The notes beneath the pieces were generated by a model. That model made no database searches. It worked only from the letters and a program-made list of their open reading frames with translations, and was not told the DNA's origin. A stretch of DNA of 54,090 nt from Nemertoderma westbladi (lineage: Eukaryota; Animalia; Xenacoelomorpha): contig JAUCBJ010007710.1 of assembly GCA_032718475.1 (NCBI GenBank), positions 1 to 54,090 on the forward strand, given 5' to 3'. How positions within the stretch are numbered: the stretch's first letter is position 1; each line of letters starts with the position of its first letter. Positions 9,701 through 44,490 of this stretch are shown one piece after another. The position numbers and the translations under genes were made by a program.

Positions 9701-9702
9701 CA

Positions 9703-11912: not shown

Positions 11913-12389
11913 GACGGCCAAAACGCTCAGAAGAAAATAAAGCCAACAAACCAATAGGAGCGTTGTTTTAATTAATTGCAAGCATTGTGCATAGTATCCC
12001 AGGATACTTAACAATGTGAAATTCTGGAAAACATTGTGAATAATGGAATAGCTGTCATAAATGCGCAAATGTTAACACATGTGTGTGTTTGTTGTCAAAT
12101 GTTACTACTAAAAGTGTATTTTACAGTAGTGTACCGGGATTGTGAAACGCCTTCCATTAGCTGTATATCAATTATCATAGCCCGTGGGATGGATGGTCTT
12201 GTGTGACTTTGCTTAGTTATATTGGTGCCACCCTGGAACCGCAGTGTCAGTAGGGGCCAAGCAACATCAATATTCCATAGTTTGAGGATTCTTAGCCATA
12301 CTGAGGGCTTTGCAGGGGATATAAGAGGCAGTGACACCCGCTGGCCTCCTTGTATGACTCTATATAACTGTAAATCCCCATATATGCAA

Positions 12390-15300
12390 TAATGGATTTG
12401 ATAAAGGAAGTTCCGATATTAGAGAGAGATATATTCAACCTTTACAAGAGTTGCTCGATAGTCTGTTGATTGGAAATTTCAGTAAACAGACTACATCAGA
12501 CGATACGCGTTATATTGAGCCACCGATGAATGAGGAACAGCTCAAATGTGAACTCTATTACTGGAAATTCACAGAGCGTTACACCCATCGGAATGGTATG
12601 TGTAGGGATTTCTTAATGACTGGACACCCTATAGACCTCTTTGACTATAATGACTTAGATGCCGAACTGAAATGGTTTTGTTCCGATTGGATATACAAAG
12701 ACAGCGCAGTGACAAACCTTGAATCAATCATGAAGTGTCTCTTAAATGCTAGTTGGAGAAAGAAGGTATCGAAGATCCGGATAAACCCGCAGACTTTTAT
12801 GAATATTTAGAGTTTCTTTGTGAAACCTACCTCAATATCGCTAGTCAACAGGATCTTGAAACGATATATCCATAAGGTATGCCCCCAGATCTGATGATGG
12901 AACTCAAAAGCATTTATACTTCACTATGATGTATTTAACGTCCAACCGACTGCTATCTGTTATGCTGGACAGTTTCGAGCAAATAGAGGAGTATTGTAAA
13001 ACTGGAGAAAGATCACCGCAATTCAACCAACAAGACATGCACCTTTGGTACTACTGCATGATTGTTCTAAACCCAATCAGCAAATCGCACATAATAGTCA
13101 CCCCCGGAGACGATGCACTAAGCATAGTTTCACGCGTAACACCTATGGTGGGTTTGAGTGAAGGTTGTTCGATCTAGACCCTTCCGTCGCTTGACTCAAG
13201 CGAATGGTAAACAAAGCGATGATCAGAGTTCTGGAATAGTCTGTCAGACCTCCCCATAAACCGGTATAACCACAAACTTTAGATCCTAAGAGTTTCTCTG
13301 ACCTGCTTGAACTATATTCAATTTTTAAAGACCTCATATTGCCCGAGCAATCCATCGGTGGCTCTGTGGCAGTGGGTGTTTTGGAATCCATCCAACCTAC
13401 CTGGCCAGCTTGGGAGGAGGACATTGATCCTCCTATTTCGACCCCAACCTCCAACCTGGTTCGAGTTCGATGCCAGTTCAACAATCCACTGAGGTCGAAG
13501 AGAGCATTGCCCAGAATGCTCTTGAAGCCATTAGGCAAAAGATTGGTAAAGGTACTTATAAGAAAGGCCTTAGAAAGGGTCAACAGGTGCAAACGGTACA
13601 TACTAGAACTGTCCTTTCACCTATTAGATAAAGAAACCGAAAATCTGGAGAAAGATATCGACTTGAGATATGTATATTCATTGACCAATTTCTTAGAGGA
13701 AAGGCACCAACAACGTAATGAGAAAATCACCAAGAGGAGAAGCATACCACAACGGACAAAAGAGAGGAAGCAGCTTTAGCCCAACCCGAAGCGCAAGAGC
13801 TTGTGACCGATCTGTTTTCCAAAACTGTACTTCATCCTTCTATCATCCCTCATTTCGAAGACAAACTCTTTGATATAGGTCAACCTCAACCAGTCGACAT
13901 GGACTTACGTTCAAACGAGTGAATCAGCAGATGCTCCTATGTTACAGTGACCCCCTATTGAACCTGCTTGAGTGGACAGGTAATTGGTGGAACCACCCAA
14001 TAATCGTGTCAACTTAGTCAATAGGATGGTACGGGAGGTTAACCTTAGGGTTTGACCCTTACGAGACACATTTTACAGAATTAAGGACCATTCTTATTCC
14101 ATATATCTGTCACACTACTATATTATTAACCCCGAGGACTCATCGCATAGCTTGAACTTCCTCCCATTAATTAACCCGCTTGACTTGGTGGAATTAGAAA
14201 GACTCTAGAAACATCTCGATCAGCTAGTGAAATCAAACTCATTTAGAAAGCCCTATAACATCGCTAGGATCGAGAATGAAACACTGTCCCCATGCAATCT
14301 CGCTGGGTTGATACAAACTCGTTTAGAATATTGGAATCTAGAAGTGCTATTTGAAGAAGAAAATATATAACTCAAAGGAGATAAAAACATGCATGACACC
14401 CAATACCTCAAATATGGTGTGATTCGACTTACAATAATGAAGGTAGTATACCGGTTGTAGAACTCGGAACTAGAAGACTTATCCACATTCGAGGGTTAGC
14501 AGGATCCACTCTTTACACGTGCCTGCTCTGCCTCTATCAAGTATTCTTTTGAGACTCTTACTGAATTACAAAGGAGATTATGACACGGGCAATTCGAGAG
14601 AGCTGACCAATCGAAAACCAGCTATGGGAATCGATGGCTCCATGCTGCCCCAACACATACTCAACATGTTGTTTGATGAGTGAATAATCAAACTCGGATC
14701 TGCAGTCTATGGAGATCGACACAATGACTTTAGATCTATGGAAAATATCCTATACCTCTTTGTTGACACCCAGTTGGTTGCTCCCTGGGCCGAAGGACAA
14801 GGATTCTTCAGGACAATGTATACAGAAACTGCTGGAGGAATGAGTAAATTCCAGAGAACTTCTATCGGACATCTCGCCTTTCAAGAGTTTGGGTAGAGCT
14901 TCAAAGTGGGAGACCCTCTCAGGTTTCTACTACTACCACTAGGATCAGCATGCTGCATTGAGCTGCATTTTTAAGAATGCTGTGCCGGCTTGTCGACCAA
15001 ATTGCGCCACCACAACTTCCTATCACCCATTACATTTGCTAGATCATCTGCATCTTCAAGGCCAGTGTCCTTTAAGATGCATCTCAAGAAAATCATGGGC
15101 AGTCCACCATGCTTATTCACTCCATGAGGCTGCGAAAGCACAACATTATGCACTGGCTGGTCCTCACAGCGAAAGCAATGTCCTGCAATGTGGAGTCGAC
15201 TTTGTTCTAGTGTCAAGCTTGGGGGAACCAATGAGACACCTCCAATGTTATATAGTGTCTGGTTGGAGATGTGTGCATTGTACTTGACACAATGAACCCG

Positions 15301-15989
15301 GCGTAGCATTCTTGTGAATGTGCCATCCAGGGATTTGGTGTCCTCAGCAGTTAGAGCCCAGAATGGACTCCCATAGAGGAGTATTGGAACTACTGCTGCT
15401 CTAAATAATCGGACCTTAAGTTTCCGATTAATTCTCTGTGACTTCCAAATCCTGGAAAGCTTATTCAAGGCTACCCATGCCTTTCCCTTACGTATCATTA
15501 CATTTCCCTTAGGTATCTAAAGATCTATGGAGATCAATACTCCCGTCTGTACTTTGAACTTCCAAGAGGTCTGCATCGGCCGTATGAATATCAAGAGAGA
15601 GAAGGAGCAGTCGAAAATATCGTACAACCTCGAAAGTTCATGTCAACTTGCAGCCCCTTAGCGACTGCAACCCAAACGACCAAACATGGACTGGTACAGG
15701 CTGCTTTACTGAAACGCACCCTAAAAGCTGCGCATACGGAAGCAATAAGATTATGTCATAAGAATTTGGACTCTGAATCCAAAGCGAAAAACAGGAAGGA
15801 ATCGATCTCAGATCTCGGTTACATCCACCGGTGGTTATACCGATAGAAACCCGATCCCTCCTGATGCACTCACATTGCATCGTTCACCCGAGAGTAGTAG
15901 TCCGCCTACCAAGGTGACTCGCCTTCAGAGAGAAAGAAACTGTAAAGAAGTTGAAGAAGTTACATAAACGGAGACCCAAAAAGAAATGA
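12390..15989 (+). pseudogene. Degenerate second copy of the BEL extra ORF (DEDDy exonuclease-like), with an internal deletion and a LINE insertion
   Basis: Colinear peptide matches to 31388-27137: RYIEPPM, YTHRNG, FTMMYLT, TEVEES..NALEAIRQKIGKGTY, FLPLINPLDLV, IHIRGLAGST, KLGSAVYGD, FVDTQL.APWAEGQGFFRTMY, RTSIGHLAFQE, TSTGGYTDRNP, KKLHKRRPKKK. Confidence 0.9.
14925..15510 (-). mobile_element. RTE-like LINE 3' fragment inserted in the second extra-ORF copy
   Basis: Near-identical to 6372-6933, with a (GTA)n tail at 14927-14940. Flanked by aggt at 14921-14924 and 15511-15514. The host frame KVGDPLR|YLKIYG is colinear across it. Confidence 0.9.
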
Positions 15990-16057
15990 CTTGTTGGGCC
16001 TATTTGGAATAGTGAACTTGTTAGAAAGTAGAACTCTAGTGTAAATATTAAACTCAA

Positions 16058-16440
16058 GTCCCACTTTCTGGGATTGGTGTTAAATATTTTGTGACTAAAA
16101 TTCATATTTTATTAGCAATATGCTGTTCTACTCCAATGTAATATAATGGAGTAAATAGTTTGCCAGTTTTCCCTGAACAAAACTCATATGCCCTTCTGTT
16201 TCAGTACACATCATTCCTTAAGATGTGGCTAATAGAAATTGTTTTCCTTGTTTTAATACAGCTGGCCCCATTTTTCAAAAGGTAAACAATAACAAATTTG
16301 ACGTATGTTAGCTGTTGATTGGCTAATGATGATTTTGCAACCCTTTTCTCAGAAATGGCCAGGCCGGAAGCTCAATATTCTGCTTTAGTTGCTAGCTAAC
16401 GGACGTGTTTTTGCCTTTTAACATCTGGCTTAGAATAGGT
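16058..16440 (+). mobile_element. PPT region and start of the 3' LTR (TG at 16078) of the second BEL-related element; LTR end not found
   Basis: actcaagtcccactttctgggattgg-TGTTAAA matches the intact element's actcaaatcccattttctgggagcgg-TGTAAAA. Confidence 0.6.
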
Positions 16441-18215
16441 AAGAATTTTCCGTTAATTACCGCATGTGTGCAGCACACTCCAGCTGGAACACCTTGAAAC
16501 ACTGACATAGACATAGACCCGTAAGACATAGAACTACTTATTATCTAGAGCGCAACATCTGAAGAGGAACTGTTAATACTATCGCATTATGTGAACATAG
16601 TTGTTAGAAATTATATAGCGAGAATCAATCGAATGAGACATAACCAGCCCAATTTAGTAAGCCGATACATTTCAGACTCCCTTTGGGTCATATACCGCAC
16701 TAGCTGATTCATATCCGATGTTAAAACGTTTGGCAAAATGAAGCAAGATTTGTGTGATAATAAATATGATGGGGAAAATTATCAAAGTCTTCTAAAAGCG
16801 CGAACAACTCATAACCGAAAACAACAGGCACTTGAATCCGTATGTACATGCTATGCCTCCATAAAAAAACGCTCCTACTCAAACCTACCTAACCAAATTA
16901 CAAAATAGCCATCAACCTATTCACTCCATATGTTAATATATCCTTATATTGTTATGTACAGTTAGTTTTGGTTTAAACACTGCCTATGCTGTAGTGTATA
17001 TTGTCAATGTGCATGGTTATTTTAAATTTCGCGTTGCATATACTTACTGTATATTTGATTTGACGTCTAATTAAAAGTTCCAATTCCAAGTTCTAGACTG
17101 TGGATCGTTTCGTTTTACAAAGCACAGAAGTGAATACAGACAGACTCAGAATGCAGTACGGTACTAAACACTTTGCGTGTGCAGTGCAGGCAATAACAGA
17201 CAGACTCAGAATGCAGTAGGGTACTAAACACTGTGCGTGTGCAGGGAATAAGAAGAAAAATATACAGTAACACGTTCGTGGTGCCTTCGCGCAGGACGAG
17301 GCCCAGTTATGAGATAAAAATTAAAATTGAGCGACTGTATCACAAAATCAGTATTTGAGAAATTTAACCATATCGACAATCAATCAAAGAAAGGGGGACA
17401 GTACGTGTTCAGCCCTTTTAATCTGCCCCCCCCCCCCCCCCTCCTACCAACCAATACATAACCGCGACATCTACCACCCAAGGGGCGGAAGGGAAGCACA
17501 AACTTATTTCCAATCGCACGTTCAATATGCGAAGCCATGTGGTTTTAGGAACTATCGAGAATTCGAGAAAATCGAGAATACGAGAAACTCGATCGAAATA
17601 CCTGCTCATCCCAGTATCCGTCCGTAGTCACCAGACAGCTGCAGTTTATTCCCGTAGAACAGTAGAATTCCCGCAGCTTCCGACCCAATTCGACAACGAA
17701 TTCGCCTCACACTTTCGCGTGGCAGAGAACATAATCCGGTGCGATACACGTCTGCCCGACTTTCAACAATTTCCCCCAGGCGATCCCAGGATCCGGCTGT
17801 CCGGGCCGCCGCTAAACCCAAATCGCAATCCTCGTCGATTCGTCCAGTCGTCGACGTAAGTCGGACTCTTCCCACCGCACTCCAAGGTGGGTGGCCTGAT
17901 TGAGGCATGAGGAACTTGGCAGTGGCCCGCATTACGATCCGACCGACCGCCATATTCCCAGTGTAGTAAATAGAATCTTACTGACAAGCAAGCAATTCCG
18001 TAGTATTTATTCCTCAGTTAATCGCATATTGATGCCACTCGGCTGCTCGGGTCCAGATACATCGGACTGTCGGAAGCTGTTTAGATGAAGAAGTTGTTTA
18101 GATGGCCTTGCCAACGACCAACGACCTGAAGACGGTACCGGTAACTCTGTACCACTGTAACAGTTAACAGTACCGGTACCGTACTGTAATCCTGTAGTCT
18201 CCTAGCAACCAGCTG

Positions 18216-25086: not shown

Positions 25087-25874
25087 GCAAGCTTTAGATC
25101 AGGCGGCGTCTCTGCAGGTTGATGCTGGGTCATGGTAAGGAGACATTGCCATAGTTGTATAAAACTTCATTGCTGCTGTGTGCATCACAGGCAATAATGC
25201 TATTGCATACCCTGCTCATCATTCTGTACATACAGTACATATGTTTCATACATAGGCCTACTGTATGATCCATAATATGTACTTGTGTCTTTAGCAGTTA
25301 GATCCCAGCGAGCATCACAGGCACCACCGCTGCAAGGAAAAGTGTGCCTTTAAATAACTTTTGAAGTATTTATCATAAACGTACTTGAGATAGATTGAGA
25401 TATTGAATCAAATATACAACGTAACTAAAATCCTTTCTTTCCATTGACACTCCTCTGATTTCCATACCAAACCCTTGCCTGGATTTGCCGACAGCAGGAA
25501 CTCTGGTCGAGACCAGAGTGAGCTTGACTAAGCCGAGAAGGTAGATATTATCAGCTAAAGACATGCACAAGAATCGTTGAGGGATTGCAAACTACGTAGA
25601 CCGGATGGAAACTACTCACATTTCTTATTATTATGAAACGCGAAGCTATTTTGTAGCCTATCAATGTTATTAATTAATTACATTTATATATTATATTTTT
25701 TGAAATCATTAACGTGTACTGTATTTCATTATGTCGTAACGTCGAAAAGACGATACTTTAGAAAAAATGAGCAAAGAAAATGGTGACATGTTCAGTAAAA
25801 CTGAACAAATGCAGACAATGACTCAGTTTACTTCAGTCAACCAAGGTGAAGATGGATCAAAGATTTATCACATC

Positions 25875-27058
25875 TGTTCGCGCTTTTAGACCTTTAGCAG
25901 TTTAACCTGCCAATTTTAGGTGTCTTCCAATTTATAAATCGACTTTAGCCTACAATTATTTATTACACTGGAATAACATTAGCCGAAACCAGTTAAGCAA
26001 CCAGAAAGTTATGGCGCGACCATTCACCCACTGTTAAGGGAGACTGGATTCGGGAGCTTGGATTTATTATTGCGTTGCAGACCTACTGTATTAATCGATA
26101 TAATCCCTGACAATATATTTACTTTCGGGGAAATATTAACAGTTCCTTTAGGACGTGGCGCTTTAAGTATAATAAACAGAGTTATGACTTATACTAATCA
26201 CAACTAGATGTCTTGGAGTTGCATAAAAGGCGCATTCTTTAGGAGATGCTTTGTTATCAATCACACCACCTCACACGACTTCACACTGATTTACACTACT
26301 TCACACTAATCTGCCGACAGTCACTGAATTTGATCATATATAAGGAGGATCACAACGGACACCTGTAGGTATTATGAAATAGCATTTAATTCACACAAAA
26401 CCACTATAATGTAAGTCGCAGTTGCTACCGGTAACCTGTCCTCTCACCTTCAGTAATCAAGAAGATTGGGGTTTTTGGGTTCTTTATCGGTATTCTCCAA
26501 ATATAACAATATATCCATCAACAGATATAACCATTAATACAAACAGTAAAATAATGCGGTGAATGCAGTAGTGCAGTTAATTAAGTAAGTATGAGAATGA
26601 TATGAGTCAAGTTAACAGTTTTAGGCTTCTATAATCCAAGGTATCAGCACAGCAGTGTAGCCAAAGTCTGAAACCTCTATAGAAACACAAAAGAATCCTA
26701 AGCCGGTGTTTTGGGCTTAGAAAATATAAGACAACTGAACTGACGTGCCTGGCACGGTTTACATAAGGCTAAAGCACACATAAAAAATGAAAATCGCTCT
26801 GATTGGCCGAACTGGCTGAGCCGAACAAAGAACCAAAGCTCCTTGCAAAAAGCTCCACGTGGACACAGCTGATAGATGTCGTCATCGGAGTTCCGGTGTT
26901 TAGAGTATTATGCGTATTGCGGAAAAAACTAGCTTTTTATGTCCTCTAAAACACACATGCAGACTTAGCGGGTAAAAATCGTTTGTTATGTCCGCTAAAA
27001 TACCTACACGGTATATTGCGGAGAAAAATGGCTTATTATATCCGCAAAAGCTTTTACA
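25875..27058 (-). repeat. 3' LTR of the BEL element (1184 bp, TG...CA)
   Basis: Minus strand reads TGTAAAAG...GCGAACA, preceded by purine-rich gggagcgg (27059-27066). Contains CCAAT, TATA-like and AATAAA motifs in the expected order. Confidence 0.85.
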
Positions 27059-27136
27059 CCGCTCCCAGAAAATGGGATTTGAGTCTATAAAATATACAAA
27101 ATCACAGTTTCTAAAATATAGGAATACTCTAAACTA

Positions 27137-30100
27137 CTAGTCCTTCTTACGCGGACGGCGTTTACGCAGTTTTTTGAGGCTAGCAAGAGTCCTTTTCTCT
27201 TTGGGGCGAGCCACTTTACTAGGAGGGCTATAACTCCGGGGTGAAGGGTACAATATAATTGCATCGGAAGGTTTAGGATTGCGGTCAGTGTATCCGCCGG
27301 TCGAGGTACCCGGTTGATCGATATCAACCTCAGTGGAGCGAGGTCTAACAACTTGCAGCGCGCGTTTCAAGACGGCAGCTCTTACTGGTCCCTGACAAGT
27401 CGTCTGGACTAGGGCGGTAGGTGGACCGTGAGTAGTGAGAAATTTCCTCGGTTTGATGGTTCTTTCTAACTCGCGTTCTTGAGCTCTATATTCATAAGGT
27501 CATCTATGAACCTCCTGTAGTTCGGGATGCGAGTTGACGAACAGATCACCATATTCTGTATCTTGAAGGATGAAGTTGATCAAGTTATAGGAGTTAAGAT
27601 CATTGGGGTTAATGTTCCTGAGATATTTACGAACAAATTTGGTCGAAATATTCTCGCCAACGCGCTTCATTAGTTCGTAACTCGGCGTGCGAGATTTTTA
27701 TTCCACGGACGCGAATAGATAAAGGTGGAACGCATAAACCCCTTCGTAGGCACGTCCAGGGTAATAGCGATGACGTGACTCACAATGTAAATCCGCGTTC
27801 GCTTCCCAGGCTCGGATATAGCGTAGGGTAATCATTTCATCTACACTTTCCAGATCGCGGTTGAAAGGGCAATCAAAGCTGGCATGTCCTTTAAGTTGAC
27901 AATGATGGCACTGAGTCATAAATTGTGGGCAGACTGCGAAAATGTGCAAGTCATTGAGTCGACAATATGCACAATAGATCTCCATCGTGGGCTGTTCATG
28001 GAAGTAGGAGCAGGGTACGTTGGAGTCCACTGGGGTGAAATGGTCTCGAGATGCGCACAATCGGCAACGTTTCCTAGAGACATAATTGGCATGTCGATAA
28101 TCGTACGTAGTGAGACATTGTGGACCTTGATACCATTCTAAAACGTAGTCGTTGTCACTGCTCCAGGGTGCTGTGGGCTGAATCTCCTCGGTTTCTAAGC
28201 ATATTGGTTCGTCTTCCAATTACATAGCTGAGGCAGGTGTAGCTGTCTCCTCAAGCGAACCCAGTGTCTGGACTTCCACGATAGAATAACCCGTGGGGAT
28301 TCGAGGTCTTGTATAACAGAGGAATGTAAGTTCTGTATACAAACGTCTTTGAAAATGGCGAATCCAGCGCTGTCTAACTTCTCAGCAGCGGAGTCTCTTT
28401 GGCTGAGCTTGGTCAGAGTGTGGTCCTTGAACTGACTATCAACGTTACGGAATGGAGTCAGAAAGCACCTAAAGCATTCAAAGCGGATGAATTTATTGTG
28501 TTCATCTAGCTTGGCGAGCTTAGTTCCAAGTATTAAGGGATGGGCGCGTATAGTACGACTGCACACATCGGCTAGCCAACTGGCAAATGCGGCGTTCTCG
28601 AAGATAGTGTATATAGCTAATGAGGGGCGAAGGGGAACACTCATAAAGCTATACACTACGCCAGGTGCGGTCAATGGTCCGTCAAAGTATAATCAGGAAT
28701 AATGATCTCCATATACTTGTTGATAGGTAATAGGGTTTCCGACCTTGAAATTCCATCCGTATTCTTGGAAGGCAAGATGTCCGATGGAGGTTCGTTGTAC
28801 TTTATTTATGCCGCTGGGTGTATTGGCATACATAGTTCGGAAGAAACCTTGGCCTTCTGCCCAGGGAGCAATCAGCTGGGTATCTACGAAAGGATACGGG
28901 ATATTCTCCATGTTCCTGAAGTCGTTTTGGAGATCTCCATAAACAGCTGAGCCGATTTTAAGGATTCTTTCATTAAACAACATCTCAAGCACGGGCTGGG
29001 GTAACATCGATCCATCGCTACCCATGGCCGGTTTACGCTCGGTGTCGGTGACGTAACGCTGTGCGAGTTCGAATTGTCCATGTCGGAGTTTCTTTTGTAT
29101 CTCGGTGAGAGTCTCAAAAGAATAATCGATCACATCGGAACACGCTCGAGTAAACACGTGGGTAGAACCAGCTAGTCCTCGTATGTGTATCATGCGCGTA
29201 GTTCCCAGTTCTCCGACTGGAACGCTACCTTCGTTATCGTAAGTGACAACTCCATACATTTCGATAACGTTAAGAGTTTCGTTCCACTCTTTAGTGGCGT
29301 TCTCTAGGGTCATCCCCACTGGATGCCATAAGGTGGCGCATTCATTAGCGTTAGGGAGATCCCTATACTTCAGATACTGTGTATTATACGTCTCTACATC
29401 TCCATATCTTTGTATTCTCTCTTCTTCGAATAATACCTCGAAATTCCAATGGACTAATCGAGTTTTAATAAATCCATCGAGATTATACGGCGCCGTTATA
29501 TCCTTCTCTATTCTGGAAACATTATAGGGTTTTCTGAATGAGTTTACTTTCACTAACTGATCCAGATGTTTCTGCAATTGTTCGAGTACGACAAGATCAA
29601 GAGGATTTATTAGTGGTAGAAACCTTAGACTATGGGTAGGATCTTCCGGTTTTACCATATAATATTGAGTTAGATTGACATAATAAGGGTGGTCTTTGAT
29701 CCCATAAAACGAGTTCGGTAAAGGTCTAGCGCGTATGTTGACCTCGTGTACCATACGACGGACAAGATCCGCTCGATTGTCCGGAGGTTCAACGAGTATA
29801 CCGTAGACACGAGCGGCCTCGATTGGCGGACGCTGTAACATAGGAGCGTCAGCGATAAGATCTCGGGATCTTAGGTTGATATCAACCGGTTGGGGTTGTA
29901 CCGTTGCGAAGAGTTTGTCTCCGAAATGGGGAACCATCGAGGGATGAATGATGGTTTTGGAATAGAGATCAGTCATAAGGATTTGAGCTTCGGGTTGGGC
30001 TAAAGCTGCTTCTTCTCTCTCATCCATTTCGATGTGTTTCTCCTCGAGCTGATTTTCCTCCGCTTGTCGTTGTAAGCATTCATCTAAAAACTCTTGTAGA

Positions 30101-31388
30101 GAATAGGTTCGTCCAAGTTCGATGTCTTCCTCGAGGTTCTGGAATTCTCGATCGAACTGTGGTAAGGCCAACTCCTTCACCGATTGGACTTGTTGCTTCA
30201 ATTTACGTTTCTCTAAACAATCGTACGTTCCTTTTCCGATCTTCTGCCGAATAGCGTCTAACGCGTTTTTTGTAACGCTCTCCTCAACTTCGGTGACGGG
30301 TTGTATCGGGGTTAAACCGGGACGATTGTAAGGGTTGAACGGCGATGTAAATGTCCGCGTCCCAATCCGGATAGGTAGGATGGGCGAATATCTAGCGAGC
30401 CCACTACCGGAGTGCCACCGATTAATTGTTTGGGTAACACCAGATCTTTGAACAGTGAGTACAGTTCGGGAGGATCCGTGATACTATTAGGATCAAGAGT
30501 TTGAGGTCTCACTAGGGAATGAGGAGGTCTGACCGAGTATTCCGGAACTCTGATCATGGGTTTATTTAAGGATCGTTTGAGTCGAGCGAGCGTAGGTGAT
30601 ACGTCAAACAAATTTCGCTCGAAACTCCCGTAAGTATAGCGAGTAAAACTGTGTTTAGCGCAACGTCTCCGCGGATGTTTATGTCTTTCCGTTTGTTGGT
30701 TAGGTCTAGGGCATTCATCACAATAATACCAAAGACGCACGTCCTGTAAGGGAAACGCGGGTGATCGTACTCCAGTTTTACAATATTCCTCCATCTGTTC
30801 GAAGCTATCCGGGACAACAGGTAGCGGTCGATCGGCGGTAAGATACATCATAGTGAAATAGAGCCGTTTGAGTTCTATCATAGGGTCATGATGTATACCT
30901 TGAGGATATCGAGTTTCTAGATTTTGTTGACTGGCAATATTGAGATATGTTTCTCTCAAGAATTCCAGATATTCGTTGAAGTCGCTGCGTTTATCCGGCT
31001 CTTCAACGTCTTCTCTTTCGAGTCGGTTTCGAATAGAATTCTCGTGTTTGATTCTCGGTTTGTTGTTCCGACTCCGCTGGGTATGATATTTAAATAGAAC
31101 CATTTCCCTTTCGGTGTCTACATCGTCCGTATCGTGTAAATCAATAGGATGACCAGTAGTTAAGAAGTCCATATACGTACCATTACGATGCGTATAACGA
31201 GCGGTGAATTTTCTATAGTCCAATTCACGCGTGAGTTGTTCCTTGGACATGGGCGGTTCGATATAACGGCCATCGTCCTCCATAGTAGTTGGACTAGCGT
31301 CGCCGCATATTAAGCTATCAACAAACACTTGCAACGGTAAGGTATATCGCTCTCTGATACCAAGATCATCTTCTATCAACTCAGTCAT
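27137..31388 (-). pseudogene. BEL extra ORF (about 1,400 codons reconstructed): DEDDy 3'-5' exonuclease-like domain, CCHC zinc knuckles and basic C-terminus
   Basis: ExoI-like VVTYDNEG, ExoII-like LPQPVLEMLFNERILKIGSAVYGD, FVDTQ, SIGHLA..YG and ExoIII-like PLRPSLAIYTIFE. Knuckles CAYC.....H....C and CHHCQLKGHASFDC. ORF pieces are joined by in-frame stops (28693, 27698, about 27500) and frameshifts (about 30370, about 28200). Confidence 0.75.
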
Positions 31389-32210
31389 AGCTGCTATATG
31401 AGTTTATCAATATTATAATTAACTTTAATTAGGCTAGCGGGCGTCGCTGCCTACCCCTCACTGCCCCCAGACAGCACAAGATCCTCAGCGCCGATGTACT
31501 GACGTCGCTGTGCCTCTCGCCAACGTAGTAGCAACACAACGATAACAATAACCAGCGCGAGTCACTCCACTGTCCGTCCCAAGGGCTTAGATTTACTTCA
31601 GGTTCTTACTGTAGAGGTAGGGCTACTTTCACAACTGCGACTAGCTACTGTAAACACACTTTAGTAGCAACATTCACCTATAAACGCACAAATTCCACAC
31701 AACTGTCACAAATTGTGCACATTCGGGCCATTTGTCCGTTAGTCAAGTGCCTTCCAGAATGCCACGTTATTATTATGTATCCCTGGATACTAGCAGTGTG
31801 CTATTTATTCCGTATGCTATTCAATGGGGCAAGCTTTCTATTGTTCTTTTAACTCACTTCTAATTCTAGCGTGGTTGTTGCTATGGTGACATTATGGAAA
31901 GCTAGCAGTTGAATTAGGGTTATTCTCATGCATACAGATCTGGGATGCTATTTAATAGTAATTCTTTAATTGTCAATATTCCCCTTTATATATGATTTTA
32001 TGAATTTTATCGGCTATTGACAATATATTGAAGATTCTCTCACGCTAATATACTTAATAGGGTGAATCTCATCTCCCATGATCTATTAATTAATGGAATT
32101 TTGGGAATGTTATAAATTGTATAAAATGACAATTTATCAAATTCATGAGAGGATATGAATTTAAATTATTCCCGTAAATTTTATTATTTAATATTAAAAT
32201 AGACACAATT

Positions 32211-32518
32211 TTATTCCAGAACATGTCTGGGGACTAGGATCCTTAATTCTAGGAATTTTGTCCTTTTAAGAGTATCGGTAAGTGCTATGATATCTTAATT
32301 GACTAGAATTTCAAAGGATCTAAATTTTAACAGATTTTGATTTATAGATTTTTATAAATATTAATTATGTAATATTTAAGATGGGCACCGATTTATTCCA
32401 GAACTTGTCTGGGGACGTTAACCACTGATTCTAGAATTTTGTCTTTCAAGTATATCGGTGGGTGCCGCGATATCTTAATCGACTAGAATTACAGATGGTC
32501 AAAGGGTTTAACAGATTT
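32211..32518. repeat. Two diverged about 127-bp direct repeats (about 182-bp period) in the pol/extra-ORF spacer
   Basis: ttattccagaac.tgtctggggac ... gatatcttaat.gactagaatt ... ttaacagattt at 32211 and 32393. Confidence 0.8.
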
Positions 32519-33038
32519 ATTTTGCGTTTTACGCTACTGTTAAAGGGACATCACGCTACTATATGTATTATTTAATATACGGTATGAGAGCAATATCGCA
32601 CGAAGCAATGTCAGTAAGAAGAGGCAAGTCGTTTCCAAGGTCTACCCAGAGCTTGGTTTAGCCGAGACACGAGGATCTGAACTTTGCATTCCTAATACTC
32701 TACTTACCAATAATACTTGAATATAGTAGGAGCTTTATTGTACTTTAATAAGTACGGACATTTCATCTTACTGTAGTCACGCATTATGATACGGACAGTA
32801 AGGAAAGAGAAAAAGAATTATTTCTCGCCATTGCACTAAATATATAATATAAGTAATTAAGTAATAAAACACGAGTATATATTGCACTAGTCTACTGAAT
32901 AATCGCTAAAATAACATTCTACTGAATAAAATTAAAGAAAACGATTATAATAATAAAATTACGTAGTAATACATACATAAATATTAAAAAAAAAAATATA
33001 TATAAAATAATATAGTCACACACCCACTCCGTACGCTG

Positions 33039-36000
33039 TTACGTTGGGGAGTCCCTAGATGTTCGTTGGATTAGGGAGGTGGTCGTGGGAAGAGTATCTT
33101 GCCTTCCATAGTTTCCAGAGAGTTCTCGGTCTCTTTCCAGTAAACATAAACGACCAGCTGGGCGATTGAGTTGCTGCGTTTCGAATACAATTCCAGGTTT
33201 CTTAAAGTTGCGTCGCATAACGACGAGTTCTACCGATCGCACTAAACCATCATCAGATATATGAGTCTCGATGATACGACCTGTCTGCCACCGCTTACGT
33301 GGAAGATCTGATTCCACAATAAGGACCATGTCTCCGGCGCTGACATTTTCTTGCTGCGCAAACCACTTGGTTCGAAGTTGTAGTGTAGGCAGATAATGTT
33401 TTTCGAAATGGTCAGCGAAACGACGGGATAAAAAACTGCATAAGTTGCCAAGTTTGTCGGCAGTATTCGTCTCCGTCCGTAATTTCCGATCGTGGAAGCA
33501 TGGCTACAGGTTTCTTCAGTAGGAAATGCGCGGGTGTTAGCACTTCTAGGGAGTCGGGACTCGATGAGACTGGCATAAGCGGTCTCTCATTAAGATAGGC
33601 GGCGATTTCCTCCATTAACGTCCGCAAAAGTTCGTCGGTGAGATACGCGCGGCACGGCACTATAAAGTGAAATGCGGTCTTTACGCTTCTTATTAATCTC
33701 TCCCAACTTCCTCCCCACCAAGGGGCGTCGGCGGCGTTGAAGGTCCAGCTGGATGCTGTTACCCTTAGCTGATCGTCCACCTGTCTTTGGTTCCAATCTC
33801 TAACGTTAGCTTTGATCTCATTATTGGCACCAATGAAGTTCGTTCCCTTGTCCGATCTCATCATATTGCTAGTTCCAAAGCGGGCGATCTGTCGGCATAA
33901 ACTTAATATGAAGCTGTTGGTAGATAGATCGTTCACCATATCTAGATGGATCACTCTACAAGTCATACAGACAAATATGACACACCATCGCTTAACTATA
34001 GTCCTAGCACGATATACTTCAATAGGGCCAAATAAATCCACACCGGTATTAGTAAAGGGTGGTTCATAGAAGCTTACTCGTTCCCTAGGTAATTCTGCCT
34101 CTCGCTGTGTTAAAGGCCTACAGAATGTTTTCCTACAGGGTATGCAGTTCCTAAGAACTTGGTTCAGAGCTCTACGGGGTTTATGAAAATAATAGCGAGT
34201 TCGAATTTCGCTAAGAACTCGTTCTCTACCAGCATGGTAAAGCCTACTGTGAACATCTACAATCATCTTGATTTGTATTTCAAGATTTCTAATGAGTATG
34301 GGAAACTTAGTGTCAAAGGATAATGGAGCATTAGTTAGTCTTCCTCCAACGCATATTAACCCATCTATCATTGTACTAGAGAAACGATCCCGTAAGCGCA
34401 TCTGTGGATTTCTCAACAACAGGAAATACTTATCGGAATCTTCATAGCATTGCAGGAGTCTCAGTATCTGCTTATTGGTTTCTTCATGCTCCTGGTAGCT
34501 GATCTTCTCCTTCAGAAACCGCTCTGATACCTTATATTTGGGAAGATCTTTAATGGCATGGACCTGCGCAGATGTCAATGGGGCGGTATCACTAGCGATC
34601 TTCGTACTGGAGTAGTGATAATGGAAGCATCGCTTCAAATATACAACGGCCTTACAAAGCCGATTCCAGGAGCTATGGTGATTGATCGCTCTCTGCAGAA
34701 GAGGTGAGAGTCCCTGCGAGACGTCTGGTGTTCCAGATTTCCAGTCTCTCTCTCTAATCTCCACAACAGATTTATTTGTGGCGTGTGAGGTTAGATCCAT
34801 AGCGTCGTCCCCGGAAATGTGTAGTACAGACAGATCTATCACGGGTTTAAATAACCCTGATTTACTCGTACGGGTTTTAGGTTTGACTTTCTCCGCTCCC
34901 TTGGCTTGTCTAATCTCAGCCGTGGTGAGATGAGGAGGCCATTCATCTTCTTCTTTACTTAGGAAGTCGGGTCCACCCAACCAGTCCGAAGTATCTATCA
35001 GTTCTTGAGGAGTCGCTCCTCTGGAGGCGATGTCGGCTGGATTAATCGTCCCAGGGCAATGTCTCCATTGATCTACATTAGTGCGACTAAGTATAATGGC
35101 TACTCTGTTGGTAACGAAGATGCTGAACTGACAGAATTCATTGGTTATATACTCCAAAACGAGTAAAGCATCAGTCCAATAGACAGTTTTCTCCAGTGGA
35201 TAGTCGATCTGTTCTGTTACATTCCGGCCGATGGCTGTAGCGTATAGAGCCGCCTTTAACTCCGCTCGAGGAACTCGTAGTTTGTTGTTTATCAAGGCCT
35301 TAGAGGTAACCAAGGCAACTTTAATTCCATCAGGAGTTTCAACTCTCAGGTAGGCTACTATACCTATTCCCATATCGCTGGCGTCTCCAAACACATGGAG
35401 TTGATAGGAATACGTGGGTAGAACGTGTCCAAAGTAGGAACGGGAAATTGTAAAGTTCTCGATGGATGGTAGAGAATCTTCCCATTTCATCCACTTCTTC
35501 AGTAGTTCTCCCTTAAGTGGATCGTCCCACGAGTGGTTTTCAAGCCACATTTGTTGTACTAAACTCTGAGCAACCAATATAACGGGGCTAATAAATCCCA
35601 ATGGATCGAAATAAGTCCTCAGGATACTTAGACAAATCTGTTTGGTTCGAACTGGATTATCTCGCCGTTTTAGCTGGAAAAACAGGATATCTCTCTCCGT
35701 GTCCCATTTTAAACCAAGCGTCTTGGTTTCTGGAAGATTGTCCTTGATAAGGTCCAGATCTTTAACCCCTCGGTCTTCCACAGGAATCGATTCCAGAAAC
35801 TCACGGGAGTTGCTAGTGAATTTAGTTAGTCGAAATCCACCGCACTTCAAACACTCAACCGTTCCCTTGGCAACATCAATGGCTTCTTCCACCGATGGGA
35901 GGGACTTTAAATTATCGTCCATGTAGATATCCCGTTTGATGTTGTTGATAACCGCTTTAGAGAAGGCGTCCCGGTTGTCATCCGCAGTAGTATGCACTAC

Positions 36001-36927
36001 TGAGCAAGCGTTTGAGGGGCTCGAGATGATCCCAAAGGCTTGGATGGTCATCCAGTACTCTACCGGTTTTTGGTTGAGGTCTCCTTCAGGCCACCACAGA
36101 AATCGTAGGCTGTCTCGATCCCTATCCAGCGCCTTAACTTGTAAGAACATGCCTTCTATATCTGAGGCAAAAGCTATAGAATATTGCCGTAATCTTAAGA
36201 GTATTCCCAACAAAGATTGGAGTAAGTTGGGTCCCGGCAACAACTCAGAATTAAGGGATTGACCCATGTAAAGGGCAGAGCCGTCGAATACTACCCTGAC
36301 TACATTGGGTTTACCGGGTTTGGGAACGTAATGATGTGTTAGATAATACGTTATCTCGGTTACGGGTGTTTCTTCTGGTACTCGCTCCGCATATCCCTTA
36401 TCGATGAATTTCTTCAGCTGTGTCTGGTACATCTCTTTCGCTGAAGCATTGGCCGTAAGACGCCGATGTAGTTGCGCAATTCTCTTCTCCGCTAAAGGTC
36501 TATTATTGATAAAGTTTGGTTCTCGTCGTCGGAAAGTCAGACCGATTTCATATCTTCCTTGATCTTTGAGAAAACGGGTGATCGTTTCCTGTATCTGATT
36601 GGCTCTTTCCTCCTCGACAGATAGAGCCTTGTCATAGGAATTAGGCTCTACAGCTTCTTGAGTAAAGAATCTTACGGCGTGTTCATCGCGAATCCTATCG
36701 TTGTATCGATCTATCGCTACATTTAATTCGTCATCATAGTCGAATTGTCCGACATGACTGACAAGATGACACAGTTGTGTTTGGTTTCTCCAAACTTCAC
36801 TCTCGTTGAGGAGGTCGATTGTATTTTCCTCATCGAATAATTGGGTAATGTCGTCGTTATCTGAGGAGTATGGTGTTCCCTCAGGCATGTTCTCTCCCTC
36901 ACTGATTTCTTCTTCCCATTCACTCAC
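33039..36927 (-). pseudogene. pol: BEL/Pao pol: RT, RNase H, integrase and C-terminal domain
   Basis: RVVFDGS, SLNSELLPGP, DIEGMF.Q, YMDD, FDPLG, FGDAS, PRAEL.AA, YWTD, NPADIASRG, H...H.GR..CIPC, GVDLFGP, SDKGTNF, PWWGGSWERLIRSVK and W..GRI...DGLVR.V. Frameshift near 33430. Confidence 0.95.
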
Positions 36928-38762
36928 CTGTGTATATGGTCAGTGGGTACTCGTTCTATGAGTGTTCTCCGGGAAGGTCCAGTGAAGTACCAACCTACTC
37001 TTGTTCTCCCCGCATAGGTTTGCAATGGTTGCAGTCGAGCAGGCTGTTTTTCTAGTGTCTCAAGCGCCTCATGCGCATTTTGGCCGATTAAAATTTGCAC
37101 CCCTGGGTAGTCGGTGTTGAATCTAGGGATATCATGCTGCTGGGTAAATTCGTCCTCATCCCAGTTGTAAGGTTCTACTTGACTGGTAGCAAAGTTCTTG
37201 ATCGCCACCATTTTCACTGACCTTAAGCTATGTTCTCCTAGTTCGTCCTAGGGAGTGGACAATGCTCCTACATAGTAGTCTGTAGCTACTGTAGATTTCC
37301 AAAGCTGCATAATTCCTGAAAGGTTCAACTTAGTTCGGAACTTGGGTTGTCCAGCAAAGATGTCTTCGGCTAGTTCCTTGTCAATGAATGTTCCTGTGCT
37401 GCCGGAGTCCAGGAGGGCGTTGACTATAAAACTCTTGACTGGACCATGGACCCTCAACTGAACTACCGGGAATTCTCGAATTCCGACGTTGGAAGTTGGT
37501 GCTTTCCAAGATGGTTGTTGGTCTGGAATATTCGATTGGACTTCATTATCAGACTCAGTTTCATACGTAAGCGCTCGATACACCGCGGTGTTTATCATAT
37601 AACAGGATTCGTTTTCATCGGAGAATACGTCCGTGTAAAATCCTTCCATCTCAGAGCTGTGGTCAGTGTCGTTCACATCACTGAATTGGACGTGTAGCTC
37701 GGACTCACTTACCTGACTCGGGCTGGTTCTTTCAAATTCGGTGTGCAGCAAGATATGATGTTTCGCGCCGCACTTAGCGCACCTCGTGTCCGAGTAACAG
37801 GTCCGCCGTTGGTGTCCTTGTCTGAGACAATTATAACATAACCGCTTATCCCACATGACATCACGTCTATCTTTTAGGGATTTCTTTAAGAATTCCTCAC
37901 ATGCACTTAAACGATGGGGCCCGTCGCATAATGCACATTTAGGTTTGATGTTACTTACTTTAACTTGAGTAGTGTTGTGCACACTTGTTCTTTCCTCGGG
38001 CTTTCTTCCATGAATTCTCTTAGGAGACATAGGAGGAGTTTTTGTTACCTGTTCTCTCCTGTCACTGGTTCGAGACTTAAATTTACTTACGTCTTTGGGT
38101 GCTTTGTTGACATAGTAAGATCTTTCTGTGTCTTTCCCGCTGTTCTCCTCCTGGGAGGTTTGGCTTTCGCCGTCGTCTGTATAACACACTGGTGTTACCT
38201 TTCTCCTAGAAACGGGTTTTTCACTTACCTTATTCTCCGATGTCTTCTCTCGGGACTGCTTTAGGAGCTGTAATCTTACCTCTCCATTTAAGAATGTCAT
38301 GAGATCAGTCATGGTAGGGTCTCTTTGTTGCTGGTCCATCATATAGAGAACTCTCTTATCCCAACGCGTACCTACTCCACCCTTCGGCAAAGTAGATGCT
38401 ACGGCTCCAACAACCATAGAACTCTTATATTCATGAGATTTACCTAGCCAATCTAACTGTCTACAGATCTCCTGGATCTCATCGGAAAATTCTATAATCC
38501 CGCTGCTAAGAAACTTCCGGGGCGCTACTAATTTCGCATTCAAATACCTAGCTATGTTAGTCCTATTACCATACCTGATGTTTAGTGTATCCCAAACTTG
38601 TCTTAATCCATCTGGATGTCCAATAAACTTTAACGCCATTAACTTGGGAGGTCCTTCCAAGCACTCGATGAGGAATCTAAGTTTCTCTCCGTGGGATAAT
38701 ACGGAGCTCTGTATGTTATCTTTATAATATTCATTAAAAGGCAACCATTTTATGCAAACCAT
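36924..38762 (-). pseudogene. gag: BEL/Pao gag core, three zinc knuckles and aspartic protease
   Basis: EKLRFL..CLEG.P..W..L..RYG. Knuckles CALCDGPH..SAC, CYNCL..GH....C and CAKC..KHH.LLH. Protease ALLDSGS. In-frame stop at 37248, then ILIG..RT.VGW..TG. Confidence 0.92.
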
Positions 38763-41185
38763 TGAACTTGACTATCTCTCCCACCTTTACCGCTTGACGG
38801 GCTTCGGTTCTAGCCATTTGACGCGTAAAACTTTCTTGGGCCATCATATTATTTAATATCGAATTATCGGTATATAAATTTCTCAGATTATGATCAGTTC
38901 TATATGGAATATCATTATCAACAGGTTTATTATTATCCTTAATAGGGTTTACTATAGGAGTTTCTACTTTCACTAGCAGTATAGATGCATGCAGGCTCCA
39001 CACCTTGCGAATTAAATACTTCAGACCTAACAGGTTGACACACTGTTACAGGGGGTGGTGTTACACCCTTTTGTATATTTACTAACTTATCGCGTTCTAA
39101 TGCGATACTCTGCTGCACTTCTTGCAACTCTAACCTACTTTTTCTTACTGTTCCCTTCAACTGCTGAACAGTCCCTTCCAACTCCCGGACCTGCTGGGAG
39201 GAACACGCTCGGTGTTCCCTCATCTGGCCGAGCAAGAGACCCATCTCCCGCTGTCCCTCATCCACCCACTCAACCGCCGAAGCGGGAGCCGCCAACATAG
39301 TAGCGGGCAGACGAGGGACGACGGGCGATAAATCTTTAATGTCTCGCTCGGCGTCCAGGACCGGGGTTATCTGAGGAACCGTCCTACTGGGCACAGGTAG
39401 TTTAGTACTGTGCAAAGGGAATTTAGAGTTAGGTTCTGGAAGTACAGGGGTCTCTCTCAAAGAGGGTGCGGCTTCAAGAACAGGCCCAATTATTTCAGGC
39501 TCATCTACTATAGTAGGTAGTCTTTCTATTCCAATAATTTGGTCTGTGGGCTCTGTACTACCTAAGTCTACACTAGCTAATTGCCTTCTCACAGCTGGGG
39601 GCAGATTAGGCAATTTCTGACGGTGTGGCGCTCTTCTACGTCCGCTGGAATGAGATCGATTTCCTCCGCCTTCATAATCTGTTGTATCGCACTCGTCAGA
39701 GGATATGAATCCCTGTCTTTTGGGAGTAGATCGACTTAGCAATTGCATATGAGTAGCTGTTCTCTGTTTATTGAAGTTGTCTTGCTTCTCTTGAAGATTT
39801 TCCAACTCTAGTTGGGTTGTCTCTTCAGATGCCCTCCATTCTGCTTCTGCCACTGCCGCTGCCGCTTTTCTTTCCGCTTCTACTGCTGCCGCTGCCGCTT
39901 TTGCCTCTGCCGCTGCCACTTTTCTTTCCGCTTCCGCCTCTGCCGCCGCCGCTGCTGCTGCCGACTTTCTTTCAACTTCTGCAGCTACCGCTGCTGCTGC
40001 CTTTCTGTCTTCTATTCGTTTTTTCTTTAACTGTTCTTCCTGTTCCTTAGCGATGCGGATGCTTTCATCAAATTTAGCATGCTCTATGGCTAACATTTCC
40101 GCATCTAATGCGTCCAACACAAATTTGGCTCCCTCACTCTTAGGGTGAAGTCCAGCTAGCCGTCTCCTCAACTCTTTGTCACCTATAAATCGCTGATAGT
40201 CCGACAGATAGATGTCAATAGCGTCCTTCTTCTGAGGTTTTTCAGTCGTCACTTCGCTTTCCACTTGAGAAAAGGCAGCGTCTGTTGATTCTCCATGGGT
40301 CGAGCGCTCAGCTAGCTGAATTTTCCATTGTGTCATTCCTTGGACTTTAAGACTCACTCGTTGGAACCAAGTCTTTACGGCGACTTGCAACGACGTATCT
40401 TGGCTTCTCTTCGAGGCTTCCTCAAAGGCTGAAAGAATTGGTCTGATCCGCAGAATTCGTTCGTGAACTTGATAAAGCAGCTCTCCCTGCTCTTGAGGTT
40501 TGTGAGGTTGTTGAAACAGGTGTTCCTCTAATTGCTCCAAAGAGCTGAAGAATCCCTGTACATATCCTGCTGCCGACCTCTTCCACACAGCGGGATCTCT
40601 AGTATCCTTGATTACTCCCATCCGGTGTAAGTCCTCCCAGGTAGCTTCCGATAAGTTAAACGGGAATCCGCTTCTGGGGAAGTTCCATTGCGTCTCGACA
40701 ATAGACTTCAGTTCTTCTATCGGGTATCCAGCATAAATATCCTTGGTCGATCGCTTACTTCTTGCCCAATCGATTTGATGTTCTTCCACAGCGATCAACA
40801 CTCTAGTGAGTACGGCCTCAGGAAGAATGAGAACTGGGTCCTCATAACCCGCCTCTGCCATCTCTGCTCCGATCTCTGGCGTCAACTCTACCGTATCTTG
40901 ACTACTGGAGCTATCGGGCCGCTGAGCAATAAGTTCTCGGCTCGGGTGTTGCTGGTGTTGCTGTTTAACAGCTGCCTCTTGGTCCCGCTTGACTTGAGCC
41001 CGCGTGCCTATAATAGACCTACGGTGCTTGACCAACCTAGGGTCTGAAACTACTACTGAAGGGATCACTTTTCTTACAGTAGGGGGGGACTGGAACTTCG
41101 GTCTAAGATGTTCTACACTATTGTCTGAGTCGCAGACTGTTCTTTCTAGGAGACTATCTGACAGAGTTTGTTTTGTGTCAGCCAT
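38734..41185 (-). pseudogene. gag: Long N-terminal gag extension (748-aa ORF plus an 89-aa frameshifted linker), Ala-rich coiled coil
   Basis: ATG at 41185. AAAAEAERK repeats at about 39830-40010. Overlaps the downstream gag frames through frameshifts near 38990 and 38755. Confidence 0.75.
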
Positions 41186-42950: not shown

Positions 42951-44490
42951 TGTTCGCGCTTTTAGACCTTTAGCAGTTTAACCTGCCATTTTTAGGTGTC
43001 TTCCAATTTATAAATCGACTTTAGCCTACAATTATTTATTACACTGGAATAACATTAGCCGAAAACAGTCTGTGCGCGACCATTCACCCACTGTTAAGGG
43101 AGACTGGATTCGGGAGCTTGGATTTATTATTGCGTTGCAGACCTACTGTATTATTCGATTGATCGTTACTATATAATCCCTGACAATATATTTACAGTAC
43201 AGGCCACTAGAAAACGCAGATTTGTACAATTGTGAACACATTTTATCAAATGTGTACCAGTGTAATGTAATGTTGTTGAATGGGACAATTGAACATAATT
43301 GAACATAATTGAATTGGCAACAACCAAAATTTTTTCGCCAAAGGATACAATTGAATACTTTTGAAACGCTTAGTAATCTGGAAACTCTCTGTAGTTTGCC
43401 GCAAACTGTCACTCACTGCAGCTGGAAATGCGATAAGGATTTTGTTTACCTTTATAGTGTGCGGTTAATAGTGTCTAGTAGGCAGGCCTATAGTTAGAGA
43501 TGTTAAGCCATCTTCTGGTGTTTCTCTGTGCCCTCTCGGTGTCAGACTAATGGCGCGACATCTCCCTGCACTAAATTAATTATTCAATGGTCTAGGCTCG
43601 TCCATCCATATACCCATCCACTCCCATACACTCCATGAACCTCCATGTGGTCTTGTATGTAGTTCTCTCTCTACCAATACAGCCCATGTCCGCAATGTTA
43701 CGTCCTGTGGGCTCTCTCATCTACCTGATATCAGACATACAGGCGCACCGCACACTAAGCCTTTGTTGGTCCCAGCAAGTTAGCTAGATAACTCGCCATA
43801 ACCTGCCAATCAGATGACTTGAACAAATGTGTTCACATGTGATCACATTGGATGAAATCTGCTTTTTCTGGTGGCCTGTACTGTACTTTCGGGGAAATAT
43901 TAACAGTTCCTTTAGGACGTGGCGCTTTAAGTATAATAAACAGAGTTATGACTTATACTAATCACAACTAGATGTCTTGGAGTTGCATAAAAGGCGCATT
44001 CTTTAGGAGATGCTTTGTTATCAATCACACCACCTCACACGACTTCACACTGATTTACACTACTTCACACTAATCTGCCGACAGTCATTGAATTTGATCA
44101 TATATAAGGAGGATCGCAACGGACACCTGTAGGTATTATGAAATAGCATTTAATTCACACAAAACCACTATAATGTAAGTCGCAGTTGCTACCGGTAACC
44201 TGTCCTCTCACCTTCAGTAATCAAGAAGATTGGGGTTTTTGGGTTCTTTATCGGTATTCTCCAAATATAACAATATATCCATCAACAGATATAACCATTA
44301 ATACAAACAGTAAAATAATGCAGTGAATGCAGTAGTGCAGTTAATTAAGTAAGTATGAGAATGATATGAGTCAAGTTAACAGTTTTAGGCTTCTATAATC
44401 CAAGGTATCAGCACAGCAGTGTAGCTAAAGTCTGAAACCTCTATAGAAACACAAAAGAATCCTAAGCCAGTGTTTTGGGCTTAGAAAATA
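42951..44490 (-). repeat. 5' LTR of the BEL element, interrupted by a MITE and missing about 330 bp of its outer (U3) end
   Basis: Matches 25875-26726. By eye, about 5 substitutions and 1 indel over 43885-44490. Homology stops abruptly at 44490. Confidence 0.9.
43195..43883. mobile_element. Tc1/mariner-type MITE (689 bp)
   Basis: TIRs cagtacaggccactagaaaacgcagattt / aaatctgctttttctggtggcctgtactg. TA duplicated at 43193-43194 and 43884-43885. The empty site (single TA) is seen at 26120-26121 in the other LTR. Confidence 0.92.

Follow-up and report, generated by a model that had tools for sequence, protein, structure and literature searches.

A third gene with a probable DEDDy exonuclease fold and zinc knuckles in a BEL/Pao retrotransposon of Nemertoderma westbladi

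The BEL/Pao element and its third gene

The stretch of DNA analysed here (the window) comprises 54,090 nucleotides of contig JAUCBJ010007710.1 of Nemertoderma westbladi (assembly GCA_032718475.1) and carries on its minus strand a BEL/Pao long terminal repeat (LTR) retrotransposon with a third open reading frame (ORF3) in the position of env. With the same orientation as pol, ORF3 occupies 31388 to 27137 (~1,417 codons), starting 1.65 kb past pol and ending 79 nt before the 3' LTR. Its sequence suggests a central domain of the DEDDy exonuclease type followed by CCHC zinc knuckles. DEDDy third genes are known from rotifers; the product of the present one, with its altered ExoIII motif, is most likely an RNA-binding pseudo-nuclease. 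The element is composed as follows.

42951..44490, minus strand: remnant of the 5' LTR, its first ~330 bp gone (blastn against the 3' LTR)
~43196-43883: TA-flanked element of ~690 bp with terminal inverted repeats, resembling a miniature inverted-repeat transposable element, inside the 5' LTR
36924..41185, minus strand: fragmented gag and protease region, preceded by a leader of ~1.77 kb (PF03564, E 7e-10; weak matches to Asp_protease_2 and zf-CCHC_4)
33039..36939, minus strand: pol, with reverse transcriptase (YMDD at 35925), RNase H, integrase and, in a different frame, a DUF5641 tail (Pfam and motifs)
31389..33038, minus strand: AT-rich spacer of 1.65 kb from pol to ORF3, partly common to a relic copy of the element
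29332..31388, minus strand: N-terminal ~690 codons of ORF3, with a frameshift near 30347 and a single Cys/His cluster near 30722
28549..29331, minus strand: DEDDy-like domain of ORF3, with an insertion of ~45 residues after strand 3 and an in-frame stop at 28695-93
27701..28219, minus strand: zinc-knuckle region of ORF3, in a frame that differs from that of the nuclease-like piece (pattern scan)
27137..27700, minus strand: C-terminal part of ORF3, interrupted by two in-frame stops; its Lys/Arg-rich tail is also present in the relic copy
25875..27058, minus strand: 3' LTR of 1184 bp, TGT...ACA, with a short G-rich tract before it

Assignment of the element to BEL/Pao, already made in a preliminary description of the sequence, is borne out by a Pfam domain search, in which DUF1759 (PF03564), Peptidase_A17 (PF05380, E 2e-35), Integrase_H2C2 (PF17921, E 2e-7) and DUF5641 (PF18701, E 4.5e-19) all passed the cut-off. 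According to PMC3985635, the Peptidase_A17 domain is an RNase H. Motif positions show the diagnostic order protease, reverse transcriptase, RNase H, integrase, and the element belongs with the Belpaoviridae. It would measure 18,260 bp (~18.3 kb) if the 5' LTR were complete, which exceeds the 4.2 to 10 kb given in the Belpaoviridae profile of the International Committee on Taxonomy of Viruses (ICTV; PMC8742986). This mismatch is descriptive rather than defining, because elements in a genome survey of BEL/Pao reach 22.8 kb, with a median of 7.4 kb (PMC3118150, file 9). The LTR pair, 1184 bp at the 3' end and truncated at the 5' end, fits the 0.2 to 1.2 kb expected of Belpaoviridae.

The two LTRs are 99.2% identical over 607 nt (5 mismatches) and 91% identical over a further 225 columns (blastn). 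Belpaoviridae are characterised by a primer-binding site for tRNA-Arg or tRNA-Gly and a polypurine tract; here the TGG of a canonical primer-binding site was not found in the first 130 nt past the 5' LTR (42820-42950), and the 3' LTR is preceded by a short G-rich tract. The element belongs to a highly repeated family: from one public run, 47,123 contigs aligned to 25700-33500 (contigs are not copy numbers), and coverage of this interval was 30 of 30 bins in three of four public runs and 28 of 30 in the fourth. Deletion derivatives also occur in these runs, as family contigs that skip 2.5 to 2.8 kb of ORF3 including the nuclease-like domain (27487-30029, 28216-31019). Although the LTR cores of the present copy (25875-44490) differ at only 5 of 607 positions, its ORF3 is broken five times and its gag-pol region has up to five discontinuities. 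Possible explanations are that a copy defective beforehand was mobilised in trans, or that there are assembly errors.

A sense ORF of ~4.25 kb had been described between integrase and the 3' LTR. Its position and sense stand, but the frame is not open: it is interrupted by frameshifts near 30347 and near 28200-28219 and by stops at 28695-93, 27700-698 and 27502-500, and this copy is dead. The N-terminal ~690 codons gave no noteworthy Pfam, PHROG or NCBIfam match (best Atlas score 0.81, for 31388-30315) and are conserved in the relic copy. A pattern scan of the knuckle region retrieved a canonical C-x2-C-x4-H-x4-C knuckle (27910), a C-x2-C-x5-H-x4-C knuckle (27973) and a looser one (28066), and zf-CCHC_3 matches this region at E 0.0012, under its Pfam cut-off. 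No hydrophobic segment was found in ORF3 by hydropathy scan (Kyte-Doolittle mean at most 1.17 over 19 residues), and ORF3 starts with an acidic N-terminus. This agrees with the reported lack of a signal peptide and transmembrane segment, the features expected of a fusion glycoprotein of the env type.

The window contains a second, diverged copy of the same region.

11990..16806, plus strand: relic of the same kind, with spacer, ORF3 and 3' LTR end (DNA identity 68-74%; lowest tblastn E 1e-109)

Part of the spacer, the basic tail and a 16-nt LTR end are common to the relic and the main copy. It has no break near 30347 and is open at 27502-500; it has Asn at the first ExoI acid and retains the ExoII Asp. 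A piece of a long interspersed nuclear element (LINE) is inserted at 14934-15495, and the ExoIII and knuckle regions are absent. Differences between the two ORF3 copies fall on 408 of 808 third codon positions (50%), as against 187 of 807 first (23%) and 122 of 812 second positions (15%; chi-square p 5e-59). Because divergence is concentrated in this way at third positions, ORF3 is seen to have been a real gene of the BEL/Pao element under purifying selection. Among family contigs, third codon positions make up 23 of the 26 variable sites listed in 28560-28745, where only differences above 10% are listed and sites are not independent. In all four public runs, the other family copies aligned lack the stop at 28695-93. 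A nested insertion with its own termini, which had been named as a possible refutation, was looked for and not found: the ~30%-diverged relic has the same gene beside the same LTR end, so that ORF3 is not nested, and the stretches flanking ORF3 share no direct or inverted 10-mers.

Likeness of the central domain to DEDDy exonucleases

The central part of ORF3 very probably has the DEDDy (PF01612) fold, judging from sequence comparison and modelling. When the 268 uninterrupted residues preceding the stop were searched in the Atlas, 27 of 30 matches were PF01612, with a top score of 0.93. The best NCBIfam match of the nuclease-like part is RNase D, over the ExoII stretch (E 0.004), and PHROGs gave a weak exonuclease match (E 0.085). 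These three independent libraries agree in pointing to exonuclease likeness. A profile built in this work from 46 PF01612 domains, none of them from animals, matches ExoII at E 2.5e-5. The earlier proposal of a DEDDy/PF01612-type domain with zinc knuckles in the env position is supported.

The order and spacing of the motifs carry the same signal. An ordered chain of seven motif blocks scores 57 in ORF3, compared with 25±5 for shuffled sequences (none of 500 reaches the observed score), 30 for the reversed protein and 18 to 27 for three other proteins of the window. The gap ranges of the chain were set with the query known; with loose gaps, still none of 200 shuffles reached the score. Taken alone, the ExoII block has a shuffle P of 0.002 and the DTQ block one of 0.042, and no other block is significant: for ExoI with the two following strands, 25 to 131 of 200 shuffles equal the score. 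The signal of the chain rests on ExoII and DTQ, since without both, 14 to 49 of 200 shuffles match it. The hhalign score is 26.2, compared with 23.5 for the best of 60 shuffles, at a probability of only 12%.

An AlphaFold model guided by 14 homologue rows from ExoI to DTQ has a predicted local distance difference test score (pLDDT) of 83 to 90 at ExoI and ExoII, and of 83 to 88 at the ExoI acids, whereas an unguided single-sequence fold has a pLDDT of 28.7. The alignment used was picked for leaving ExoIII unconstrained. Strands 2 and 3 are misplaced in it; AlphaFold set them directly after ExoI, on residues without alignment rows. Over residues 1-165 the guided model matches DEDD structures, led by EXD2, Rrp6 and other DEDD proteins, with EXD2 (6k17) as the best match (Z 8.7, rmsd 4.5, 120 aligned; Foldseek E 1e-3). 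This ranking is partly circular because EXD2-like and RNase D-like rows had served to guide the model. The PF01612-like match that had been expected of this domain was obtained with Foldseek and in the Atlas, but not in Pfam, where no PF01612 match appeared at E up to 10 and the cut-off for DEDDy membership was not reached.

Other searches returned little. The PDB sequence search gave one match (E 1.4), phmmer found no homologue at E 0.001 among 1.84 billion representatives, and two word-indexed protein searches, one for longer and one for near lengths, were also blank. None of 30 candidates in metagenome contigs was a homologue, nor was the single candidate in viral contigs, and tblastn against phages gave 2 matches at E 5. 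These blanks are weak evidence because the collections searched contain few animal repeats.

The ExoIII site and the possible role of the ORF3 product

Three of the four acidic residues of a DEDDy site are present on the minus strand, in the sense of pol, where they had been described: the ExoI D-x-E (D 29238-36, E 29232-30) and the ExoII Asp (D 28935-33), with DTQ at 28890. At ExoIII, two candidates 14 residues apart each show the exact aromatic-x3-PL-x-x5-Y-x3 spacing. The upstream one (28689-28639) has Tyr at 28653-51 and Ser at the acid position (28641-39); the downstream one (28635-28597) has Tyr at 28611-09 and Glu at 28599-97. The motif therefore reads Y-x3-S or Y-x3-E, and the canonical Y-x3-D is present in neither register. 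The preliminary description had given Glu as the ExoIII acid. Glu is indeed found there with exact spacing, but the upstream Ser register scores higher in most tests, leading in the block scan (10.8 versus 7.5), the motif chain and hhalign, and being chosen in 18 of 27 MAFFT runs (Glu in 3, neither in 6). On balance the Ser register appears the probable one and the Glu register a lesser but substantial possibility. No variant of the Ser codon is listed across family contigs, and since neither candidate codon shows a listed amino-acid variant, the missing ExoIII Asp is a trait of the family and not a product of decay. A third register at 28740 ranked 11th in the block scan, and alternative ExoI placements (residues 388, 453-455 and 480 of the read-through protein) were rejected for lack of D-x-E or of room for strands 2 and 3. 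In Trypanosoma RNase D (TbRND), metal A is bound by the ExoIII Asp, and replacing this residue with Ala abolishes all but trace activity (PMC7797062); with no canonical Asp in either register, the active exonuclease of the preliminary description is not supported.

The chances seem about even that the ORF3 product is a non-catalytic or weakly catalytic RNA-binding helper, combining a DEDDy fold that lacks the fourth acid with CCHC knuckles and a basic tail, as its sequence and the analogies below suggest. In such a protein an RNA 3' end or hairpin would sit in the exonuclease pocket, and the adjacent single-stranded RNA would be gripped by the knuckles, which do so in Trypanosoma RNase D; the basic tail would carry the protein to the nucleus. 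Candidate substrates are the oversized transcript of the element itself and the small RNAs that target the element, which the protein would shield or escort, or soak up, instead of cutting. Non-catalytic RNA binding by the DEDD fold is described for Exd1, Exuperantia and Egalitarian (bioRxiv 10.1101/2025.08.03.668247). It is unlikely, though conceivable, that a successful BEL/Pao family has gone further and swapped env for a nuclear decoy of 1,400 residues, a disarmed nuclease with knuckles that catches the 3' ends of PIWI-interacting RNA (piRNA) or small interfering RNA (siRNA), and so acts as a silencing suppressor captured independently of the rotifer cases.

Several observations weigh against a helper with a disarmed DEDDy site. 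The Atlas matches have 151 to 155 of 256 features in common with the query, fewer than the 170 usual among true family members. Against shuffles, neither of the ExoIII segments reaches significance by itself, and the ExoIII part of the guided model has a pLDDT below 50. This copy retains the remaining three acids, a finding equally compatible with catalysis, and the Glu codon varies only synonymously across family contigs. The 3 of 27 MAFFT runs that choose the Glu register are the only ones agreeing with strand 2 of the AlphaFold model, and an EXD2-like profile ties the registers at 5.2 (Ser) versus 4.8 (Glu). That the nuclease-like part and the knuckles form one fused protein across the break near 28200 we only infer, because the relic lacks the stretch that holds the breaks near 28200 and at 27700; fusion is favoured because there is no Met before the first knuckle.

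These same points bear on the alternative that ORF3 encoded an active, non-canonical 3'-5' exoribonuclease with a D-E-D-E tetrad, trimming small RNAs or the 3' ends of the element's RNA. The knuckles would then feed substrate as in Trypanosoma RNase D, and the enzyme could counter piRNA or siRNA silencing. This is possible but doubtful: the P-L-x-x5-Y-x3-acid spacing is exact at 28635-28597, the Glu residue is unchanged in family contigs, the three Glu alignments and the profile tie speak for that register, and rotifer ORF3s tolerate D-to-E at a different position (DEED; PMC5408684), but the Glu register falls below Ser in the block scan, hhalign, the chain and 18 of 27 alignments, it requires a longer linker, and its L-A-I-Y stretch looks like the helix after ExoIII in EXD2-like proteins. 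A DNA-end or proofreading enzyme that trims complementary DNA or primer ends of an oversized 18-kb element would suit a length far above the ICTV range (PMC8742986), the DEDDy domains of Dada DNA transposons, which are proposed to process 3' ends (PMC3706591), and the nearest Atlas clusters, which are viral PF01612 proteins. It is nevertheless quite unlikely, given a tetrad that is incomplete, a gene that lies 1.65 kb downstream of pol and is not fused to the reverse transcriptase, and BEL/Pao elements of up to 22.8 kb on record in a survey whose main text does not contain the word exonuclease (PMC3118150, file 9).

The remaining alternatives question the fold or the gene itself. Likeness to DEDDy proteins might be limited to the single helix-strand stretch from ExoII to DTQ, the protein being something else or the product of two genes. 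The blank results from Pfam (E up to 10), the PDB (none below E 1.4) and 1.84 billion representatives are compatible with this, as are the loss of significance without ExoII and DTQ (14 to 49 of 200 shuffles) and the low single-sequence pLDDT of 28.7, the better model having been guided by DEDDy rows. However, the Atlas result was obtained with unguided sequence, motif order and spacing fit DEDDy, and three independent libraries concur, so that this explanation is very unlikely. That ORF3 is neutral cargo or a separate nested insertion, as its five breaks in this copy and the family contigs skipping 2.5 to 2.8 kb of it might suggest, is scarcely credible: the strong codon-position bias refutes it unless the selection signal predates capture, the ~30%-diverged copy has the same gene, spacer and LTR end, the flanks share no 10-mers, and the stop at 28695 is not in other aligned copies.

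Juno and Vesta are gypsy-like lineages. These bdelloid LTR retrotransposons, and the Athena/Terminon elements, carry DEDDy ORF3s with the motif DEED, whose function is untested (Rodriguez et al. 2017, PMC5408684; reviewed in PMC5718144, PMC6431247 and PMC6338049), and they bear out the rotifer precedent named in the preliminary description. A nematode precedent, also named there, was not found in the literature searched, and the word nematode does not occur in PMC5408684. Like ORF3 here, the Juno and Vesta gene is an RNase D-like DEDDy gene downstream of pol, in the env position and without membrane segments. Its carriers are rotifer lineages and not BEL/Pao, and its DEED motif keeps four acids; the bdelloid signature is not found in the present ORF3, where the third acid is Asp. 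A fusion to multiple CCHC knuckles is not described for the Juno and Vesta ORF3 in the excerpts of PMC5408684. The Juno, Vesta and Athena ORF sequences did not surface in any protein search.

An architectural parallel is TbRND, in which a DEDDy domain is likewise followed by several CCHC fingers, a pairing that its authors call very unusual (PMC7797062). Its structure (7c42) is among the fold matches of the guided model (Z 5.8, rmsd 3.9, 110 aligned). TbRND is a cellular enzyme that actively trims guide RNA and has four fingers and a complete tetrad, whereas ORF3 is mobile, has ~690 extra N-terminal residues and lacks the ExoIII Asp. The likeness is one of architecture. In the branch of EXD2, WRN exonuclease and Mut-7 (Nibbler), which holds the best fold match, EXD2-like bacterial rows have a lead into ExoII resembling the L-P-x2-hydrophobic lead of ORF3; ORF3 differs in its low identity (~14%), its ~45-residue insertion after strand 3 and its altered ExoIII acid. 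Exd1, Exuperantia and Egalitarian, whose DEDD folds bind RNA without need of catalysis as is proposed for ORF3, are host proteins without a knuckle array, and Egalitarian keeps all four acids.

Belpaoviridae with an env-like ORF3 have the same gag-pol organisation and ORF3 position as the present element (PMC8742986). The BEL/Pao third genes named in PMC8742986 and PMC13524379 are of the env type or encode fusion glycoproteins (Roo F-like, Chuviridae gB-like), unlike ORF3 with its lack of a signal or membrane segment. Outside the LTR elements, a complete DEDDy domain is found in Dada DNA transposons (PMC3706591). No exonuclease ORF in BEL/Pao was found in the literature searched, whose coverage excluded subscription journals and Repbase, and the word exonuclease is missing from the main text of PMC13524379, as it is from that of the BEL/Pao survey.

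With ORF3, accessory genes of the exonuclease type, known from LTR lineages of rotifers, would extend to BEL/Pao, in an architecture much larger than the rotifer cases and parallel to that of the trypanosome guide-RNA trimmer. It bears on whether animal retrotransposons carry their own tools for protecting RNA or blunting small-RNA silencing. A high-copy family that conserves a nuclease-like gene without the standard fourth acid offers a concrete test of binding against cutting.

Other features of the window

The second BEL/Pao relic is abutted by what is left of a different LTR element, at 8912-11915 on the minus strand (RT_RNaseH E 3e-18, rve E 8e-6). Past the integrase of this LTR element is a Pro/Gln-rich frame with a weak cold-shock-domain match (E 0.0035), possibly another accessory gene. 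LINE-type reverse transcriptase sequence (RVT_1 E 4e-28) occurs at 3718-6933 and 14934-15495 in three related pieces, one of them inverted and inside the relic ORF3.

The stretch from 45691 to 49271 is a satellite with 15/17/32-nt repeats, whose short arm is inverted relative to the long arm and which yields three spurious long frames. A 163-nt tandem repeat is present at both 2342-3168 and 24707-25086. The GC-rich stretch at 21417-22469 (minus strand), with short frames and a weak zinc-knuckle match (E 0.06), is probably another retroelement fragment.

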